Sequence record: MZ501108
From: Escherichia phage TrudiGerster
Direction: 5' to 3' (one strand)
Length of the DNA: 64,000 bases
Below are positions 2,352 through 14,831 of this stretch, piece by piece (the first letter of the stretch is position 1; each line of letters begins with the position of its first letter). Both the position numbers and the translations under genes were made by a program. The notes below the pieces were generated by a model, which saw only the letters and a list, made by a program, of their open reading frames with translations, was not told the origin of the DNA and ran no database searches.

Positions 2352-3568
2352 TGGGTTTAAAAAGCTGGATTACTGAAAAGCTAAATCCGGGTCAACGTAT
2401 TATAAGAGACATGGAACCAGTTAGTCATCGTACTAACCGAAAGCCCTATACCACAGGTCAAGCCTACAGTAAGATTGAGATTCTCAACCGAACTGCTAAC
2501 ATGGTCATTGATAGTGCGGCTGAGTGTTCTTATACTGTCGGAGCAAAATATAATATTGTCACGTATGCTAATGGCGTCAAGGCAAAGACTCTAGACACTC
2601 TCTTAAATGTACGACCTAATCCATTCATGGATATAAGCACATTCCGTAGACTTGTAGTCACTGACCTACTTTTTGAAGGTTGTGCGTATATCTATTGGGA
2701 TGGCACAGCACTTTACCATGTCCCGGCTGCTCTTATGCAGGTCGAGGCAGATGCCAATAAGTTTATCAAAAAATTTATATTTAATAATCAGATAGACTAT
2801 CGCGTAGATGAGATTATCTTTATAAAGGATAACAGTTACGTGTGTGGCACAAACTCTCAAATTTCTGGACAATCTCGTGTTGCTACTGTTATTGACTCTC
2901 TTGAGAAGCGTTCTAAAATGCTCAACTTTAAAGAGAAGTTCCTCGATAACGGCACCGTGATTGGTCTTATTCTTGAGACGGATGAAATCCTGAACAAGAA
3001 ATTGCGTGAGCGTAAACAAGAAGAATTACAACTCGATTATAATCCTAGTACGGGTCAGTCTACTGTCCTGATTCTAGATGGTGGTATGAAAGCAAAACCG
3101 TACTCCCAAATATCCTCATTTAAAGATCTAGACTTTAAAGACGACATTGAACGTTTCGATAAGAGCGTCTGTCTGGCTTTTGGTGTTCCGCAAGTTCTGA
3201 TTGATGGTGGTAATAACGCTAATATTCGACCAAACATCGAATTGTTCTACTACATGACAATCGTTCCTATGCTGAACAAACTGACTAGTTCTCTTACTTT
3301 CTTCTTTGGTTACAAGATTACTCCTGATACTAAGGAAGTAGTTGCGTTAACTCCAGATAAGGAAGCTGAGGCTAAACATTTAACCTCTCTGGTTAATAAC
3401 GGTATCATGACTGGTAACGAAGCTCGACAAGAGCTGAACCTTGAACCTTTAGATGATGAGCAGATGAATAAGATTCGTATTCCTGCTAACGTTGCTGGTT
3501 CTGCTACAGGTGTATCTGGTCAAGAAGGTGGTAGACCGCAAGGTTCCGCCGAAGGGGATGAAGAATGA
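2351..3568 (+). CDS. portal protein
   Basis: 405 aa ORF directly downstream of terminase and upstream of the head genes; size and position typical of T5-like portal. Confidence 0.8.
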   Translation: MGLKSWITEKLNPGQRIIRDMEPVSHRTNRKPYTTGQAYSKIEILNRTANMVIDSAAECSYTVGAKYNIVTYANGVKAKTLDTLLNVRPNPFMDISTFRRLVVTDLLFEGCAYIYWDGTALYHVPAALMQVEADANKFIKKFIFNNQIDYRVDEIIFIKDNSYVCGTNSQISGQSRVATVIDSLEKRSKMLNFKEKFLDNGTVIGLILETDEILNKKLRERKQEELQLDYNPSTGQSTVLILDGGMKAKPYSQISSFKDLDFKDDIERFDKSVCLAFGVPQVLIDGGNNANIRPNIELFYYMTIVPMLNKLTSSLTFFFGYKITPDTKEVVALTPDKEAEAKHLTSLVNNGIMTGNEARQELNLEPLDDEQMNKIRIPANVAGSATGVSGQEGGRPQGSAEGDEE

Positions 3569-7928: not shown

Positions 7929-9338
7929 ATGTCTTTACAACTATTACGTAATACTCGAATCTTCGTGTCTACGGTTAAGACTGGTCACACCAAAGAAAAC
8001 ACGCAAGAGATTCTAGTTCAAGATGATATTTCTTGGGGTCAGGACAGTAACTCAACCGATATTACTGTTAACGAAGCTGGTCCGCGTCCAACTCGTGGTT
8101 CAAAACGTTTCAACGACTCCTTGAACGCTGCTGAGTGGAGCTTCTCTACTTACATCCTGCCTTACGCGGATAAAACTACTGGTAAGCAGATCGTTCCAGA
8201 CTATATGTTATGGCATGCGCTCTCTAGTGGTAAGCCTATCGATCTCGATGGTGATACTGGAGCTCATACTAACGAAACCAACTTCATGGTTAACTTTAAG
8301 GATAACGCATATCACGAACTGGCTATGCTGCACATTTATATCCTTACTGATAAAGCCTGGAGTTACATTGATTCCTGTCAGATCAACCAAGCCGAAGTAA
8401 ACGTAGATATCGAAGATATCGGTCGTGTAACTTGGTCGGGTAACGGTAACCAGCTGATTCCTTTGGATTCACAGCCATTTGACCCTGATACTGTAGGTAT
8501 CGATGATGAAACTTACATGACTATCCAGAGTTCTTATATTAAGAACAAATTAACTATCCTGAAGATCAAGGATATGGATACTGGTAAGGCATATGATATT
8601 CCGATCACTGGTGGTAGCTTCACAATCAACAACAACATCACCTACCTGACTCCGAACATCATGTCCCGTGTAAACATTCCAATCGGTTCCTTTACTGGTG
8701 CATTCGAACTAACTGGTTCTCTGACTGCTTATCTGAACGATAAAGCTCTAGGTTCTATGGATCTGTACAAAGATCTGATTAAGACCCTGAAAGTAGTTAA
8801 CCGTTTCGAAATTGCCCTGATTCTTGGTGGTGAATACGATGATGAGCGCCCTGCAGCTGTTCTGGTCGCTAAGCAAGCCCACGTTAACATCCCAACTATC
8901 GAGACTGACGATGTACTTGGTACTTCTGTTGAGTTCAAGGCTATCCCTACCGATCTGGATACAGGTGATGAAGGTTACCTTGGTTTCTCTAACAAGTATA
9001 CCAAAACTACTATCGCTAACCTGATTGCTACAGGTGACGGTGGTCAAGTTGCTCCGGTTCCAGTTACTGGCATTACTGTTAAGTCTGCTGGTGACGCTAC
9101 TTCAGTTGAAAACAGCGCAACTCTTCAGATGACTGTAGATGTTCTGCCTGCTGAAGCTACGAACAAGGCTGTAACTTGGTCTATCTCTTCTGGTACTGCT
9201 GCTACTATTGACGCAACTTCTGGTCTTCTGACTGCTGATGCTTCTAAAACTGGTGCAATTACGGTCAAAGCGGTAGCTAAAGACGGTTCTGGTGTAGAAG
9301 GTACTAAGAGCATTACAGTTACTGCTTCTGGTGGCTAA
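7929..9338 (+). CDS. major tail tube protein with C-terminal Big_2-like Ig domain (pb6-like)
   Basis: 469 aa; C-terminal Ig-like segment (VTGITVKSAGDATSVENSATLQMTVDVLPAEATNKAVTWSISSGTAATIDATSGLLTA); biased codons. Confidence 0.78.
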   Translation: MSLQLLRNTRIFVSTVKTGHTKENTQEILVQDDISWGQDSNSTDITVNEAGPRPTRGSKRFNDSLNAAEWSFSTYILPYADKTTGKQIVPDYMLWHALSSGKPIDLDGDTGAHTNETNFMVNFKDNAYHELAMLHIYILTDKAWSYIDSCQINQAEVNVDIEDIGRVTWSGNGNQLIPLDSQPFDPDTVGIDDETYMTIQSSYIKNKLTILKIKDMDTGKAYDIPITGGSFTINNNITYLTPNIMSRVNIPIGSFTGAFELTGSLTAYLNDKALGSMDLYKDLIKTLKVVNRFEIALILGGEYDDERPAAVLVAKQAHVNIPTIETDDVLGTSVEFKAIPTDLDTGDEGYLGFSNKYTKTTIANLIATGDGGQVAPVPVTGITVKSAGDATSVENSATLQMTVDVLPAEATNKAVTWSISSGTAATIDATSGLLTADASKTGAITVKAVAKDGSGVEGTKSITVTASGG

Positions 9339-9342
9339 TTAA

Positions 9343-10239
9343 ATGTACTACTCTCTAATGCGAGAGTCGAAAGTTATAGTTGAGTACGATGGCAGGGCGT
9401 ATCACTTTGACGCTCTGTCAAACTATGATATCAATACCTCCTACGAGGAATTTAAAACTCTTCGTAGGACTATTCATCGCAGAACCAACTATGCTGACTC
9501 TGTTATTAACGCACAAGCTCCATCATCAATATCGCTGGCTATAAATTTTAGTAATACCCTTACTGAGGCTAACTTCTTTGAATGGATGGGCTTTGATAGA
9601 GAGGGTACTACCTTCCTACTACCACTTTATAGCACGAATATTGAACCAACAATGTTTAATATCTACATAGTTAATAAAGATAATAACTGTGTATATTTTG
9701 AAAACTGTTTTGTATCTAACGTTGACTTCTCACTTGATAAGAATGTCCCTGTGCTGAATGTTGGTATTGAGTCTGGTAAGTTCTCTGAGGTATCCACGTA
9801 CACTCCTGCTGGTATTGTTCAAGGCGAGGTTATGTCTTACAGCCCTCCTAGAGTAGCTACAAACAGTAATATTTTACCTGCTCTTTTATCCGCTTCTATG
9901 TCCTTCCAGCAGCAATGCTCTTGGAGAGAAGATAAAAGCGTATTTGACATAAACAAAATATATAATAATAAAAGAGCTTATGTTAATGAGATGAATGCTT
10001 CGGCAACAATTGCGTTCTACTACACCAAGCGATTTGCTGGTGATATGTTCTACAATATTGAACCTGAGACTGATATCCCTTTAACTATACGAAATGAACA
10101 TATTTCGGTTGATTTCCCTTCAGCACGTATAACAAAACGCCTACAATTCTCGGATCTGTACAGGATTGAGTGGGATGTAATTCCTACTGCTGATTCTGAT
10201 CCGGTAAGAATCGACTTCTTTGGAGAAATAAAGAAATGA
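9343..10239 (+). CDS. tail structural protein (p140-like)
   Basis: 298 aa ORF between tail tube and chaperone genes. Confidence 0.45.
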   Translation: MYYSLMRESKVIVEYDGRAYHFDALSNYDINTSYEEFKTLRRTIHRRTNYADSVINAQAPSSISLAINFSNTLTEANFFEWMGFDREGTTFLLPLYSTNIEPTMFNIYIVNKDNNCVYFENCFVSNVDFSLDKNVPVLNVGIESGKFSEVSTYTPAGIVQGEVMSYSPPRVATNSNILPALLSASMSFQQQCSWREDKSVFDINKIYNNKRAYVNEMNASATIAFYYTKRFAGDMFYNIEPETDIPLTIRNEHISVDFPSARITKRLQFSDLYRIEWDVIPTADSDPVRIDFFGEIKK

Positions 10240-10640
10240 TTAACTTAAAAGATATTACCCTAGATACTCGCTCTGTTACGCTTTCCTACCCTGGTATGCC
10301 TAACTTTAAGCTTGAACTGAACTACATGTCTCGTGCTACCTCTAAGCGTGTTATTGCTTCTGCAAAACGTGATGAGTGGGTTAACGGTACACTGTTACAA
10401 GTTCAGGATGATGACAAGTTCATCGAAGCTTTCGTTGACTCTGCTATCAAAGGTTGGACTGGTCTGACTATTGGTGATGTTGAGAAGCTGATGCTGATTG
10501 AAACTGAAGCTGATCCATCTACCGAAGTTCCTTTTAGCCGCGATAATGCTGTGATGCTAATGCAGAACTCTGCTGCGTTTGATTCTTGGATCAACCAGAC
10601 AGTGTTCCACTTAGACACTTTTCGTAGCCCAAAAGCGTAA
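10236..10640 (+). CDS. tail assembly chaperone (upstream ORF)
   Basis: 134 aa acidic ORF immediately upstream of tape measure region. Confidence 0.5.
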   Translation: MINLKDITLDTRSVTLSYPGMPNFKLELNYMSRATSKRVIASAKRDEWVNGTLLQVQDDDKFIEAFVDSAIKGWTGLTIGDVEKLMLIETEADPSTEVPFSRDNAVMLMQNSAAFDSWINQTVFHLDTFRSPKA

Positions 10641-10701
10641 ACAACTTTTAGATGCCGTTGCCAAATTCGCAGACAAATGCGTTAAATCTTCGGCATCTAA
10701 A

Positions 10702-11070
10702 ATGACTAAAGAACAATACTTAATAATGTGCGAGTCAATGGGTATCGAACCAGATCCTGATGTGATGCCTGTTGAACTCGAAGATTTTCCACCTATCGTA
10801 TCTACTAGTATGCAAATTTATAACAGTCTCATTGATTGTTTCATACCGGGTGACTTTCCTATCTTTATAGGCAAAGACAAGGGTGCATTAGGTGTTTTAT
10901 TTGATATCTATGGGATTACTGATCCGATAGAGAAAGAGTTCGTTCTACATATCATCAATATATTTGATTCGAAAGCAGTAGACGCAGCTCGTAAGAGAGC
11001 CGAGAAACATGGGAAACAGAATGGTCGCACTCCGAACATTAAACCTCATGGAAGATCTCGAGCTCAGTAA
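10702..11070 (+). CDS. tail assembly chaperone (downstream ORF; frame open upstream to 10615)
   Basis: 122 aa; weak RBS at its ATG; its frame is +1 relative to the upstream ORF and open from 10615. Confidence 0.45.
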   Translation: MTKEQYLIMCESMGIEPDPDVMPVELEDFPPIVSTSMQIYNSLIDCFIPGDFPIFIGKDKGALGVLFDIYGITDPIEKEFVLHIINIFDSKAVDAARKRAEKHGKQNGRTPNIKPHGRSRAQ

Positions 11071-11105: not shown

Positions 11106-11138
11106 GGCTCTGGGTGATTTGCCCAGAGCCTTTTTTAT
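11106..11138 (+). terminator. rho-independent terminator
   Basis: hairpin ggctctggg-tgatttg-cccagagcc followed by tttttt. Confidence 0.7.
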
Positions 11139-11153
11139 TGGGAAAAATAAATG
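11131..11153 (+). repeat. conserved 23-nt element ttttttattgggaaaaataaATG (copy 2)
   Basis: identical to 6114-6136; ends in start codon of tape measure gene. Confidence 0.8.
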
Positions 11154-14100
11154 ACTGATAAGCTAATACGAGAACTACTGATAGACGTAAAGCAGAAAGG
11201 GGCAACCCGTACTGCTAAATCTATTGAAAATGTTTCCAATGCGTTAGAGGATGCTGCTGCCGCTTCTGAACTGACTAATGAACAGTTAGGAAAGATGCCC
11301 AAAACTCTTTATTCCATTGAGAGGGCGGCGGATAGAGCAGCAAAAAGTCTAACGAAGATGCAAGCAAACCGTGGTATGGCTAGTATAACTACTTCAATAA
11401 CAAAAATTGGAGATAAGTTAGATGACTTAGCACTAGCAATGCTAGATGTTGCAGATAAAATGGAAAGTGGTTTTGACCACGTTGGTAAATCTGTAAAGGC
11501 TATGGGCAATGACGTAGCTTCTGCAACTGAAAAAGTTCAAGATAGGTTATACGATACAAATAGAGCCTTAGCAGGTACCTCTAGAGGCTTTAATGATACC
11601 ACTACGGCAGCAGGACGCGCTAGCCGAGCAATCGGTAATACTTCTGGGTCAGCACGTGGCGCAACTCGTGACTTCGCAGCTATGGCTAAAGTAGGAGGTG
11701 GTTTACCTCTAATGTATGCTGCAATCGCATCTAACGTGTTCGTTCTGCAATCTGCTTTCGAACAACTGAAGATGGGTGACCAGTTAAACCGTCTAGAGAA
11801 GTTTGGTACTATAGTTGGTACTCAGACGGGTACTCCAGTACAGACGTTGGCTAGATCTCTACAAGAAGCTGCTGGTTATGCAATTTCTTTTGAAGAAGCA
11901 ATGAGACAGGCATCTTCTGCTTCTGCATATGGTTTTGATGCAGAACAACTTAATAAGTTCGGTCTAGTAGCTCGTCGTGCTGCTGCTGTTCTTGGTGTAG
12001 ATATGACTGATGCGCTTAACCGTGTAATCAAGGGTGTATCCAAACAAGAAATCGAACTTCTGGATGAGCTTGGTGTTACTATTCGTCTTAATGATGCCTT
12101 CGCTGATTACGTTAAACAGCTTAATGCTGCTAACACTGGTATTACATATAATATTAATAGCCTTTCTTCCTTCCAGAAGCAACAAGCATACGCTAACGCA
12201 GTAATCGCTGAATCTACTAAACGTTTCGGCTACCTGGACGACGTGCTTCGTGCAACTCCATGGGAACAGTTTGCTGCTAACGCTGATGCTGCCTTACGTA
12301 AGATTCAACAAGCTGCTGCTAAGTACCTTGGTCCAGTTATTGATTCTATTAACGCAGTATTCTATACTTCTCAAGCTTCTATCTCTGCAACTGCGGCTAG
12401 GGCACAGGAGCAGACAAACAAATCGATTGATCCTAGTAACGTGGGTGCTGTAGCTCTTGGGCTCGAGGCATCAGAAGCTGGGTACAATAAGGCTCTCGAT
12501 ATGTATAGAGAATCTCTAGATAAGCGTAATAAGTTAAAGGCTGATCTAGATAAACGTATGCAGCAAGCTGACTTCTTTACCACTGGTGCAATCCGCTCTG
12601 TGGCTCAAGGAGTTCCTTTAAGTGCTGCTGCATTGGGTGCTTCCGAGGAGAATAAGAAGTTTGTTGCTGATACCGCTGCAATGGCATTACAAGTAGAACG
12701 TCTTGATAAGGAAGTTGCTGACTCTACAGATAACTTAGGAGCCTGGAAATCTGCGTATCAAGCTGCTGGAGCGGCTGCTGCTAAGGCAAATCCTGAGTTC
12801 CAAAAACAAATTAATCTGCAGAAAGATGCTAATGATCCGAGTGCAGTTTACGACTTCAATTCTGAAACTCTAAAAGGATTAACGGAGCAGCAGAAAGCGT
12901 ACAACCAGACTAAGAAAACTGCTAGTGACTTAGCAAATGATATTCAGAACATTGCTCAAAATACTAACACTGCTGCTAAGACAAGTGCATCATTAGCTGA
13001 TACAATTAAGACTATTGAATCGCTATCAGCTGGTACTGGTAAGAATGCTGATGAGTATGTTAAGAGCCTGAACTTAGGTTATAATACTCTAAGTGAAATG
13101 AAAACTGCTTCCCAAGCACTTGCTGGGTACGTAAAACTAACTGGTGATGAAACTAAGAATCAGTTAGCTGTTCAGCAGAAGATTGCCGAAGTATACAACC
13201 AGACTAAGGACAAAGAAAAGGCTCAGGAAGCTGGTAGACGTCTGGAAGTTCAACAGCTAGAAGAACAGGAAGCCGCACTTAAGCGTGTACTGGAAACTAA
13301 CCAAGGTAATAAAGCAATTGAAAATGAGATTGCTAAAATCCAGTTAGAGAAGATCAAAATCGCTAACCAGAACATGGAAGCTCAGAAGAAGGTTAAGGAT
13401 TATACGGATAAGATCCTTGGTGTCGATCGTGAAATTGCTCTGCTTAACAACCGTACTATGACGGATACTCAATATAAGTTAGCTCAGTTGAATCTTGAAC
13501 TGACTATCGAGAAAGAGAAGTATGCGTGGTACTCTAAGCAGGTTGACAAACAGAAGGATGCTGAGCAATCAAGACGTGCTCAGGCACAGATTGAACGTGA
13601 AATCTGGAAGTTCCGTCAAGACCAGCAAATGGAAATGGCCAGTGGGCGCGAGAGAGCCTTAGGGATATCCCAAACCGAACGTAACGTTACTGGTGAATCT
13701 CAGCGTTTAACTGAACAGCAAGCTCTGTACCAAAGTCTACTGGAGATTACAAAAGGAAACGCACAAGCTCAGGAAGAGTATAAGCGTAAGATCCAAGAAA
13801 CTTCGGCAGCTCTAGCACAACTCAAGATGCAACGTGATGCTCAAATGCAGCAATCTGTTACTTCTTCTGTTGGTGGCACTTATACACCTACTACTGGACT
13901 GGAGGGTGATGATAAGGCCAATATGGATATGCAGAATAGAATGGCATCCTATGACCAGGCTATCTCTAAATTATCTGAGCTGAACTCTGAAGCAGCTGCA
14001 GTAGCACAAAGTATGGGTAATCTAACTAATGCTATGATTCAGTTCTCCCAAGGATCTCTGGATACCACATCTTTAGTAGCTGCTGGTATGCAAACTGTAT

Positions 14101-14831
14101 CTTCAATGATTCAGTATAGTGTTGGTCAACAGGTAAGTGCGATTGATCAGGCTATTGCGGCAGAACAGAAGCGTGATGGTAAATCAGAGGCATCTAAGGC
14201 TAAGATCAAGAAGTTAGAAGCTGAAAAGCTTAAGATCCAACAAGATGCAGCTAAGAAGCAAATCATCATCCAAACAGCAGTTGCAGTTATGCAGGCAGCT
14301 ACTGCAGTACCTTATCCATTCTCTATCCCATTAATGGTGGCGGCTGGATTGGCAGGTGCTATGGCATTAGCTCAGGCGTCTTCCGCATCTGGTATGTCTA
14401 GTATTGGAGACACGGGTGGAGACACTGCTAGTTATTTAACTCTTGGTGAGCGCCAGAAGAACGTTGATGTTTCTATGTCGGCTAATGCTGGTGAATTATC
14501 CTACGTGCGGGGTGATCAAGGTATCGGCAATGCCAACTCCTTTGTCCCTCGTGCAGAAGGTGGTAATATGTACCCAGGAGTTAGTTACCAGATGGGTGAA
14601 CATGGTACCGAGGTAATTACTCCTATGGTTCCCATGAAGGCTACTCCTGCTGATGAAGTTAAAGGCTCAGCTAGAGGATCATCTGGTAGACCTATTGTAC
14701 TGAACATCAATACAATGGATGCGGCGAGCTTCCGAGATTTTGCTTCGAGTAACAGTGCTGCGTTCAGGGATGCCGTGGAACAGGCTCTTAATGAGAATGG
14801 AACCACCCTGAAATCACTTGGTAATTCTTAA
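11151..14831 (+). CDS. tail tape measure protein
   Basis: 1226 aa, long alpha-helical/coiled-coil Ala/Gln/Lys-rich protein with C-terminal hydrophobic segment; position after chaperones. Confidence 0.88.
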   Translation: MTDKLIRELLIDVKQKGATRTAKSIENVSNALEDAAAASELTNEQLGKMPKTLYSIERAADRAAKSLTKMQANRGMASITTSITKIGDKLDDLALAMLDVADKMESGFDHVGKSVKAMGNDVASATEKVQDRLYDTNRALAGTSRGFNDTTTAAGRASRAIGNTSGSARGATRDFAAMAKVGGGLPLMYAAIASNVFVLQSAFEQLKMGDQLNRLEKFGTIVGTQTGTPVQTLARSLQEAAGYAISFEEAMRQASSASAYGFDAEQLNKFGLVARRAAAVLGVDMTDALNRVIKGVSKQEIELLDELGVTIRLNDAFADYVKQLNAANTGITYNINSLSSFQKQQAYANAVIAESTKRFGYLDDVLRATPWEQFAANADAALRKIQQAAAKYLGPVIDSINAVFYTSQASISATAARAQEQTNKSIDPSNVGAVALGLEASEAGYNKALDMYRESLDKRNKLKADLDKRMQQADFFTTGAIRSVAQGVPLSAAALGASEENKKFVADTAAMALQVERLDKEVADSTDNLGAWKSAYQAAGAAAAKANPEFQKQINLQKDANDPSAVYDFNSETLKGLTEQQKAYNQTKKTASDLANDIQNIAQNTNTAAKTSASLADTIKTIESLSAGTGKNADEYVKSLNLGYNTLSEMKTASQALAGYVKLTGDETKNQLAVQQKIAEVYNQTKDKEKAQEAGRRLEVQQLEEQEAALKRVLETNQGNKAIENEIAKIQLEKIKIANQNMEAQKKVKDYTDKILGVDREIALLNNRTMTDTQYKLAQLNLELTIEKEKYAWYSKQVDKQKDAEQSRRAQAQIEREIWKFRQDQQMEMASGRERALGISQTERNVTGESQRLTEQQALYQSLLEITKGNAQAQEEYKRKIQETSAALAQLKMQRDAQMQQSVTSSVGGTYTPTTGLEGDDKANMDMQNRMASYDQAISKLSELNSEAAAVAQSMGNLTNAMIQFSQGSLDTTSLVAAGMQTVSSMIQYSVGQQVSAIDQAIAAEQKRDGKSEASKAKIKKLEAEKLKIQQDAAKKQIIIQTAVAVMQAATAVPYPFSIPLMVAAGLAGAMALAQASSASGMSSIGDTGGDTASYLTLGERQKNVDVSMSANAGELSYVRGDQGIGNANSFVPRAEGGNMYPGVSYQMGEHGTEVITPMVPMKATPADEVKGSARGSSGRPIVLNINTMDAASFRDFASSNSAAFRDAVEQALNENGTTLKSLGNS

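Follow-up and report, generated by a model that had tools for sequence, protein, structure and literature searches.

In phage lambda, the tail assembly chaperones gpG and gpGT are related by a −1 ribosomal frameshift at the heptamer G_GGA_AAG. In chaperone pairs of this type, little of the fusion protein is made relative to the short protein, and the fusion is needed for tails to assemble and does not occur in virions. Phage tail chaperone frameshifts are mostly −1, with Mu gpGT made by a −2 shift, and +1 shifts in phage tails are known from tail-tube genes, namely tsh of the Listeria phages PSA, A118, and A500 (at CCC_UGA) and gp17.1* of SPP1 (PMC3498833, PMC5009743). The PA-X protein of influenza A virus is also made by a +1 shift, at UCC_UUU_CGU, as shown by a junction peptide; the efficiency is about 1% and there is no known stimulator (Firth et al. 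2012, PMC3498833). The same authors pointed out that CGN is the preferred aminoacyl (A)-site codon of similar proposed sites, in a role left unresolved, and that a class of sites consisting of UUU_C with restricted A-site and exit (E)-site codons might exist (PMC3498833). UUU_CGN is likewise the proposed +1 motif of the plant amalgaviruses (PMC5052127). In our literature search, UUU_CGN turned up only in eukaryotic systems (plant viruses and human ASXL genes), with no phage or bacterial report, and there was no report of recoding or of a +1 frameshift in the chaperone genes of T5, Tequintavirus, or Demerecviridae. Here, we analyze two adjacent tail assembly chaperone open reading frames (ORF1 and ORF2) in a 64,000-nucleotide (nt) stretch of Escherichia phage TrudiGerster (record MZ501108), referred to below as the window. 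We propose, with a probability of about 85%, that ORF1 and ORF2 are fused by a programmed +1 ribosomal frameshift at UUU_CGU.

Results

The chaperone ORFs overlap in frames that differ by +1

The source of the window is a T5-like phage of the Demerecviridae, and its nearest relative is Salmonella phage S124 (Epseptimavirus): the 835 bases spanning ORF1 and ORF2 are 96.8% identical to S124 and 83–88% identical to about 430 other T5-like genomes. ORF1 (10236–10640; plus strand, as for all chaperone features below) encodes a short "G-like" tail assembly chaperone of 134 amino acids, the product of standard decoding, which ends in DTF-RSPKA and has the tail-assembly-chaperone fold. ORF2, counted from an ATG at 10702 and ending at 11070, encodes a "T-like" C-terminal domain of 122 amino acids. 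As in lambda G/GT, the pair follows the tail-tube gene and directly precedes the tape-measure gene, and its second ORF, which has no conserved start of its own, is in a different frame and overlaps the end of the first; unlike lambda, the T5-like locus has a baseplate-tube gene, p140, between the tube gene and the chaperones. ORF2 matches phrog_3914 (E 1e-56) as well as the C-terminal half of phrog_313, and the 277-residue fusion that a +1 shift would produce is collinear with phrog_313, its residues 1–261 aligning to profile positions 12–257 of 258 (E 3e-50). Both halves are homologous to the chaperone family. Sequence searches of Pfam, NCBIfam, and PDB with ORF1 and ORF2 gave zero matches, and similarity of these ORFs to lambda G/T was not detectable in Pfam. 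The Pfam accession PF27119.1, which is precomputed on ORF1 homologues and was not matched in our Pfam search, may already cover this chaperone family.

The ORF2 frame is +1 relative to ORF1. It is closed upstream by TAG at 10612–10614 and then open from 10615 to 11067, and it overlaps ORF1 for 23 nt (10615–10637), up to the ORF1 stop at 10638–10640. The −1 frame is open for only seven codons. The initial annotation had described this geometry (the coordinates, the 23-nt overlap, the +1 frame open from 10615, and a closed −1 frame), and each element is present. It had also remarked that the ATG at 10702 is preceded by essentially no Shine–Dalgarno sequence; we found none in the 18 nt upstream, and none of the 29 +1-frame codons preceding this ATG is a canonical or common near-cognate start. 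The two options that it offered were a +1 frameshift and independent initiation of ORF2, and the comparative evidence given below (the arrangement in 29 of 29 loci, the coding linker, and the unconserved ATG) favors the frameshift. The only −1 heptamer in the window, C_CCA_AAA at 10628–10634, is probably functionless: the −1 frame is shut after five codons by a stop at 10649–10651, and T5 and many relatives have TCAAAA.

The +1 arrangement and TTT_CGN are conserved across deep lineages

Distant relatives, 28–57% identical to the window in ORF1, were collected by tblastn and comprise Klebsiella phage Sugarland, Serratia phage Kamaji, Pantoea phage AAS21, Proteus phage M4H10_20, and the Vibrio phages Brizo, phi3, ValDsh2, D260, and D437; marine metagenome contigs are also among the +1 lineages. 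T5 and all 28 T5-like loci from IMG/VR have a geometry identical to that of the window, and single-protein IMG/VR scans with Vibrio and Proteus queries returned near-identical loci only. The initial annotation had suggested comparing the frame relationship in related phages and had named a +1-frame stop upstream of the ATG as a finding that would speak against a shift. Among the 29 loci with the +1 arrangement, which represent about 13 deep lineages, we found the +1 relationship, a frame open across the ORF1 stop, and no such upstream stop in every one, and all 29 have TTT_CGN in the ORF1 frame within the overlap (TTT_CGT, 10620–10625, in the window). At an off-frame stop density of 0.097 per codon, the chance of an open linker is 0.12 for the window alone and about 1e-14 for 13 lineages, a value that assumes 13 independent lineages and so overstates their independence, but not by enough to matter. 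One close relative (56% identity), metagenome contig OIEK01001625.1, is the only one with an early ORF1 end and no T-domain match in any frame; it appears to be misassembled or truncated, not a counter-example.

In every distant relative, an invariant Phe-Arg pair (TTT CGT or TTT CGA) lies a few codons ahead of the end of ORF1. The tail beyond it, from 0 to 19 residues, is unconserved, and the ORF1 stop falls between 6 and 60 nt downstream of the TTT according to lineage. The overlap of Vibrio phage D437 is just 11 nt (ACAACTTTCGT followed by TAA), and many further Vibrio D-series records have a match at the coordinates of D437 with equal identity. The region common to the overlaps of all lineages spans −5 to +6 relative to the first T of TTT (about 11 nt), and within it re-pairing is possible only for tRNA-Phe, from UUU to UUC. 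When 14 deep lineages are aligned over 130 nt, TTTCG is the sole block without variation; at closer range, among 29 unique T5-like sequences, the 23-nt overlap is near-invariant, with a single variable C/T position. At the E site, the window has ACT and the other lineages have AAC, AAT, ACC, TCA, GGG, TTG, or CGA, so that the UCC of PA-X is not found there. PA-X is matched in two other respects: UUU_C lies in the upstream frame inside the overlap, and the A-site CGN is conserved beyond protein need.

Codon usage elsewhere in the same genes makes this invariance improbable by chance. All 16 representatives have TTT at the site, followed by CGT in 11 and CGA in 5. Elsewhere in these chaperone genes, Phe is encoded by TTT 106 times and by TTC 86 times (TTT 55%), and CGN accounts for 89 of 161 Arg codons (55%; AGA 59, CGT 41, CGA 23, CGC 19, AGG 13, CGG 6). 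The chance of TTT, or of CGN, in about 13 lineages is thus 0.55^13, or about 4e-4 per codon, treating the lineages as independent at saturated synonymous sites.

The initial annotation had named two candidate shift sites in the overlap. TTT-C (10620–10623) is conserved and extends to TTT_CGN, whereas AAA-G (10632–10635) did not survive the comparison, being missing in most lineages and beyond the ORF1 stop in several. The fusion could in principle arise by another event in the overlap: a +1 slip of tRNA-Lys at AAA_G, a Mu-like −2 shift, or a shift at the ORF1 stop. The window and T5 both have AAA_G, tRNA-Lys is able to read AAG, and a −2 shift has a precedent in Mu gpGT (PMC3498833) that frames alone cannot separate from +1. 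We nevertheless give these routes little credence. The AAA_G site is absent or past the ORF1 stop in Kamaji (ATC AAG), Proteus phage, AAS21, Brizo, D260, ValDsh2, and D437; a −2 shift would land tRNA-Phe on ACU, AAC-derived, or GGU-type triplets, which vary by lineage and do not pair; and the codon preceding the ORF1 stop is different in every lineage. Slippage of RNA polymerase on the T run, giving an mRNA one nucleotide short in which the frames are joined, would draw on the TTTT at 10619–10622 in the window. We find this explanation barely credible, as most lineages have just three T's (AACTTTCG, GGGTTTCG), far below the homopolymer runs that support slippage (PMC5009743), and as it leaves the conserved CG after the T run unexplained.

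The segment between ORF1 and ORF2 evolves as +1-frame coding sequence

Read in the +1 frame, positions 10624–10701 specify a 26-residue fusion linker, VAQKRKQLLDAVAKFADKCVKSSASK, of which 10641–10701 is annotated everywhere as intergenic. Over these 61 nt, variable sites among the 29 unique T5-like sequences fall at +1-frame codon positions 1, 2, and 3 in the ratio 6/1/15, as they do in the coding regions (26/4/88 in ORF1 and 18/12/75 in ORF2). The linkers of the window and T5 have 18 nucleotide but only 3 residue differences over 26 codons, including a TCT-to-AGC serine change. For the +1 frame, the corresponding ratio of nonsynonymous to synonymous differences per site (pN/pS) is 0.18; the body of ORF2 gives 0.15, and the other two linker frames give 0.92 and 9.0. 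Across deep lineages, the linker keeps the residue pattern F-[VE]-x-x-x-R-x-x-L...[DA]-K-[FY]...[ST]-K-x-x-Y. We conclude that the linker is translated in the +1 frame and is under purifying selection at the protein level.

The ATG at 10702 behaves differently. It is invariant among the 29 T5-like sequences, and the equivalent codon is ATA (Ile) in Sugarland and GTA (Val) in Kamaji and AAS21, with the adjacent TKEQYL retained. The first ATG in the T frame lies at +70 to +145 from the TTT depending on lineage, and no Shine–Dalgarno sequence or start codon for ORF2 is conserved across lineages. In the window, a hairpin with a perfect 12-bp stem (UUUUAGAUGCCG at 10646–10657 paired with CGGCAUCUAAAA at 10691–10702) has a 3′ arm that covers the 11 nt preceding the ATG and its A; the minimum free energy of the local fold is −28.9 kcal/mol (z −4.5). 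The T5-like phages keep 9–10 of its pairs, one of them covarying (C-G in the window and S124, U-A elsewhere). This hairpin is specific to the lineage, is unconserved in distant lineages, and lies outside the conserved signal; it may block independent initiation of ORF2 or simply reflect coding constraints.

These data bear directly on the explanation that there is no recoding and that ORF2 is translated independently from the ATG at 10702 (or from an ATG at 10726), perhaps by leaky or coupled initiation after ORF1 termination, giving two separate chaperones. Initiation at 10702 would give an N-terminal Met-Thr-Lys-Glu, expected as a MTKEQYLIMCESMGIEPDPDVMPVELEDFPPIVSTSMQIYNSLIDCFIPGDFPIFIGK-type peptide. 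The conservation of this ATG within the T5-like group and an AAGGAG located 7 nt upstream of the first ATG in Kamaji are what such initiation would lead one to expect. Against it, the ATG in the window has no Shine–Dalgarno sequence and is buried in the 12-bp hairpin, and it is lost in Sugarland, Kamaji, and AAS21 though the residues upstream are conserved. The 61 nt upstream evolve as +1 coding sequence though they contain no start codon; the frame relationship and open frame recur in all lineages at the chance level of about 1e-14 computed above; and a sister clade, described below, has canonical −1 heptamers at the same position. We consider independent translation of ORF2 in place of a fusion to be highly improbable.

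A mixed arrangement, in which the +1 fusion is accompanied in T5-like phages by some free T-domain protein made from the ATG at 10702, is less remote, and we still regard it as doubtful. The ATG is invariant in the 29 T5-like sequences and gene callers place starts there in many homologues; yet the Met is also a mere residue of the fusion, replaced by Ile or Val elsewhere, the start has the hairpin and Shine–Dalgarno deficits just described, and lambda makes no free T protein (PMC5009743). In line with recoding, the 150 best-scoring of the 167 T-domain homologues that came from 1.8 billion representative proteins included no natural in-frame G-T fusion and showed no consistent N-terminus, and the fused sequence itself had no match in a word-indexed search. 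In the same library, a 1455-residue repeat protein has seven separate stretches that match residues 89–129 of the T domain.

A sister clade has −1 heptamers at the homologous position

We scanned metagenomes with an ORF1 alignment and obtained 77 loci, which together with the loci from phage records gave 74 with a resolvable junction. The T domain is in the +1 frame in 29 of these and in the −1 frame in 45, the latter confirmed with a hidden Markov model of the T domain. Among the −1 environmental relatives, 44 of 45 have a canonical X_XXY_YYZ heptamer (G_GGA_AAC or A_AAT_TTY) and none has TTT_CGN. Thus the −1 heptamer leading into the second ORF, a hallmark of lambda-type loci that the window lacks, is present in nearly all members of this group, and its G_GGA_AAC differs from the G_GGA_AAG of lambda in the last base only. 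The heptamers lie immediately before or at the homologous Phe codon. Since the −1 relatives have heptamers at this same place, the whole family gains access to the T domain by recoding.

The −1 clade also shows that the CG of the +1 site is not explained by protein constraints. In this clade, the residue after Phe in the ORF1 frame is Ser, Thr, Gln, Pro, or a stop, and the T-frame codon that comes next begins with C, T, or G, so that neither Arg nor G is needed there. A neighbor-joining tree of the ORF1 proteins groups the −1 loci in a single clade and places the +1 loci on several deep branches, so that a single switch between −1 and +1 suffices.

UUU_C is avoided elsewhere in the phage

In the 62 ORFs of the window, TTT followed by a codon beginning with C occurs 25 times against 64 expected (ratio 0.39), whereas the ratios for all other NNT codons followed by C are 0.76–1.57. 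TTC followed by C occurs 107 times against 72 expected, and TTC followed by CGN 27 times against 13.2. The genome therefore avoids UUU_C specifically, yet keeps the copy at the chaperone junction invariant. This pattern points to selection against UUU_C, perhaps owing to a tendency to shift in this host. In E. coli, UUU followed by a pyrimidine was reportedly found to be prone to rightward shifting (Fu & Parker 1994; Schwartz & Curran 1997).

Proposed mechanism and search for stimulators

In the mechanism that we propose, a minority of the ribosomes translating ORF1 would pause with tRNA-Phe on UUU (10620–10622) in the peptidyl (P) site and CGU (10623–10625) in the A site. UUC is the better match for the GAA anticodon of the tRNA-Phe, which would move one base ahead onto UUC (10621–10623); decoding would resume at GUA (10624) and continue across the "intergenic" linker and ORF2 as far as the stop at 11068. 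The predicted product has 277 amino acids, consisting of ORF1 residues 1–129 and 148 residues encoded by 10624–11067 (the 26-residue linker and the 122-residue T-like domain), and its predicted junction peptide is ...HLDTFVAQK (tryptic form ...TVFHLDTFVAQK). By analogy with lambda G/GT, the ORF1 product would be the abundant short chaperone that coats the tape measure; in the rare fusion, the N-terminal part would bind the tape-measure protein and the C-terminal T-like domain would recruit the tail-tube protein. We infer that the shift is ribosomal, takes place at UUU_C, and is of low efficiency (a few per cent or less), which would be adequate for a G/GT-type system.

Our searches for an RNA stimulator were negative. 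RNAalifold returned zero consensus pairs for the 14 deep lineages, folding of the 95 nt downstream lineage by lineage gave z values from −3.5 to +0.6 with no common position, and an Rfam search found nothing meaningful. Upstream of the site, no purine-rich or Shine–Dalgarno-like stimulator is conserved across lineages.

Genome context

The chaperones are preceded in the window by a pb6-like tail-tube protein with a Big_2 domain (7929–9338) and the p140 baseplate-tube protein (9343–10239; PF23779, E 1.5e-140), and they are followed by a tape-measure protein of 1226 amino acids (11151–14831). T5 and other relatives have the same order of tube, p140, ORF1, ORF2, and tape-measure genes. Between the end of ORF2 and the tape-measure gene, a strong hairpin resembling an intrinsic terminator (11106–11130; 11 pairs, of which 7 are G-C, then TTTTTTATT) is followed by a T run to about 11137. 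A terminator is annotated at the equivalent place in the T5 and Sugarland records, and the hairpin may attenuate transcription of the tape-measure gene. In T5 record AY587007, the tape-measure gene is given as two coding sequences (CDS), "hypothetical RB49ORF238c-like" (2385–3182 of locus L036) and pb2 (3179 onward); compared with the single 1226-residue ORF of the window, this split is probably a sequencing or annotation frameshift.

Vibrio relatives have an extra hypothetical ORF of about 250 amino acids between the T-domain ORF and the tape-measure gene (2390–3151 in locus L033, 2345–3082 in L035, 2380–3135 in L038, and 3169–3912 in L040), which is missing in the window and in the enteric T5-like phages. 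T5-like chaperone sequence of 87–93% identity also occurs in short records named "Listeria phage LM 4-11-1" and "LM 4-14-1" and in a protein labeled Enterococcus faecalis; contamination or mislabeling is the likely source of these names. In SP_Thor, the annotation under the chaperone match (DNA methylase, ribose-phosphate pyrophosphokinase) appears displaced. ARAGORN found no tRNA genes in the 64-kb window; the tRNA cluster that T5 carries must therefore lie outside it.

Discussion

The fusion of G-like and T-like chaperone domains is already known. What the comparison supports as new is a PA-X-like +1 signal that stands in place of a −1 heptamer and is conserved across the Demerecviridae. In contrast to the −1 shift of lambda gpG/gpGT on a tandem-slippage heptamer, the T5-like signal is +1 and consists of a P-site tetranucleotide and an A-site codon (UUU_CGN). 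That phage tail modules can accommodate shifts in either direction is shown by Mu, the Listeria phages, and SPP1 (PMC3498833, PMC5009743); the +1 sites of the Listeria phages and SPP1 differ in using a proline codon with a stop codon or a pseudoknot and in residing in tube-protein genes, not chaperone genes. E. coli prfB (RF2), with CUU_UGA and an upstream Shine–Dalgarno sequence, is likewise a bacterial +1 P-site slip to better or equal pairing on a codon starting UU. Its A site holds a stop codon and a Shine–Dalgarno-like stimulator lies 3 nt upstream, whereas the T5-like A site holds the sense codon CGT and no purine-rich block is conserved.

PA-X is the closest parallel. It shares with the T5-like site the P/A-site dicodon UUU_CGU, the proposed re-pairing of tRNA-Phe from UUU to UUC, the lack of an obvious stimulatory structure, and a function for which low efficiency would do. 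The differences lie in the ribosome, which is bacterial here; in CGU, which is common in the T5-like host and rare in the influenza case; in the E site, which is UCC in influenza and ACU, AAC, or others in the T5-like phages (UCC is not conserved in the amalgaviruses either); and in the product, a host shut-off nuclease in one case and a morphogenetic chaperone in the other. The UUU_CGN sites proposed for amalgaviruses, chronic bee paralysis virus, and fijiviruses were likewise deduced from conservation within an ORF overlap, with a variable N (PMC5052127, PMC3498833). These are eukaryotic RNA viruses in which the fusion product is the polymerase, and in the T5-like family N is U or A only.

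Several points weigh against the proposed frameshift. The fusion is predicted here from sequence comparison, whereas the PA-X site was proven by a junction peptide. ORF1 and ORF2 are entered as two separate CDS, none joined, in every GenBank record that we inspected, as independent translation of ORF2 would have it, and T5 and Sugarland are said to have no predicted frameshift signal (PMC6256483, citing for T5 the work of Zivanovic et al. 2014 on T5 morphogenesis). The negative results for a conserved RNA structure, for a downstream fold at a common position, and for an upstream purine-rich element count on the same side. So does codon usage: CGU is the commonest Arg codon of the phage (24.9 per 1000) and also of E. 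coli (table in PMC3498833), and because it is common, a slow A site cannot be assumed and the rationale of a "hungry" A-site codon is inapplicable. The multiplied probabilities given above are upper bounds on significance, as the lineages share ancestry. Finally, the association between frame and motif seems to reflect about one switch, not many independent events, and the weight of the case rests on the maintenance of the motif over deep divergence.

A broader reading is that UUU_CGN is a universal, stimulator-independent +1 signal that acts on bacterial and eukaryotic ribosomes alike, and that the Demerecviridae, including T5, swapped a −1 heptamer for it and have kept it throughout their history. 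We judge this reading about as likely to be right as wrong. If it holds, CGN could not act by rarity, because CGU is common and rapidly decoded in the hosts; its effect would come from an intrinsic property of CGN in the A site, and one possibility is that CGN is read by an inosine-containing tRNA-Arg(ICG) common to bacteria and eukaryotes. T5 would then offer a tractable bacterial system for asking why PA-X-type sites prefer CGN.

T5 is a principal model of siphophage tail structure and assembly, and all annotations give its chaperones as two distinct proteins. Should the +1 fusion prove real, it would explain why T5 seemed to lack the frameshift used by nearly all long-tailed phages, and about 900 deposited genomes of the family would need a joined CDS. 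The PA-X/amalgavirus UUU_CGN motif would reach bacteria, where the rare-codon explanation fails and E. coli genetics can be applied, and the specific avoidance of UUU_C in other phage genes suggests that the tetranucleotide is costly in this host. The family would also provide a natural experiment: at the same codon, its homologous genes would rely on −1 tandem slippage in one clade and on +1 P-site slippage in another. The expected G/GT logic of tail-length determination would extend to T5.

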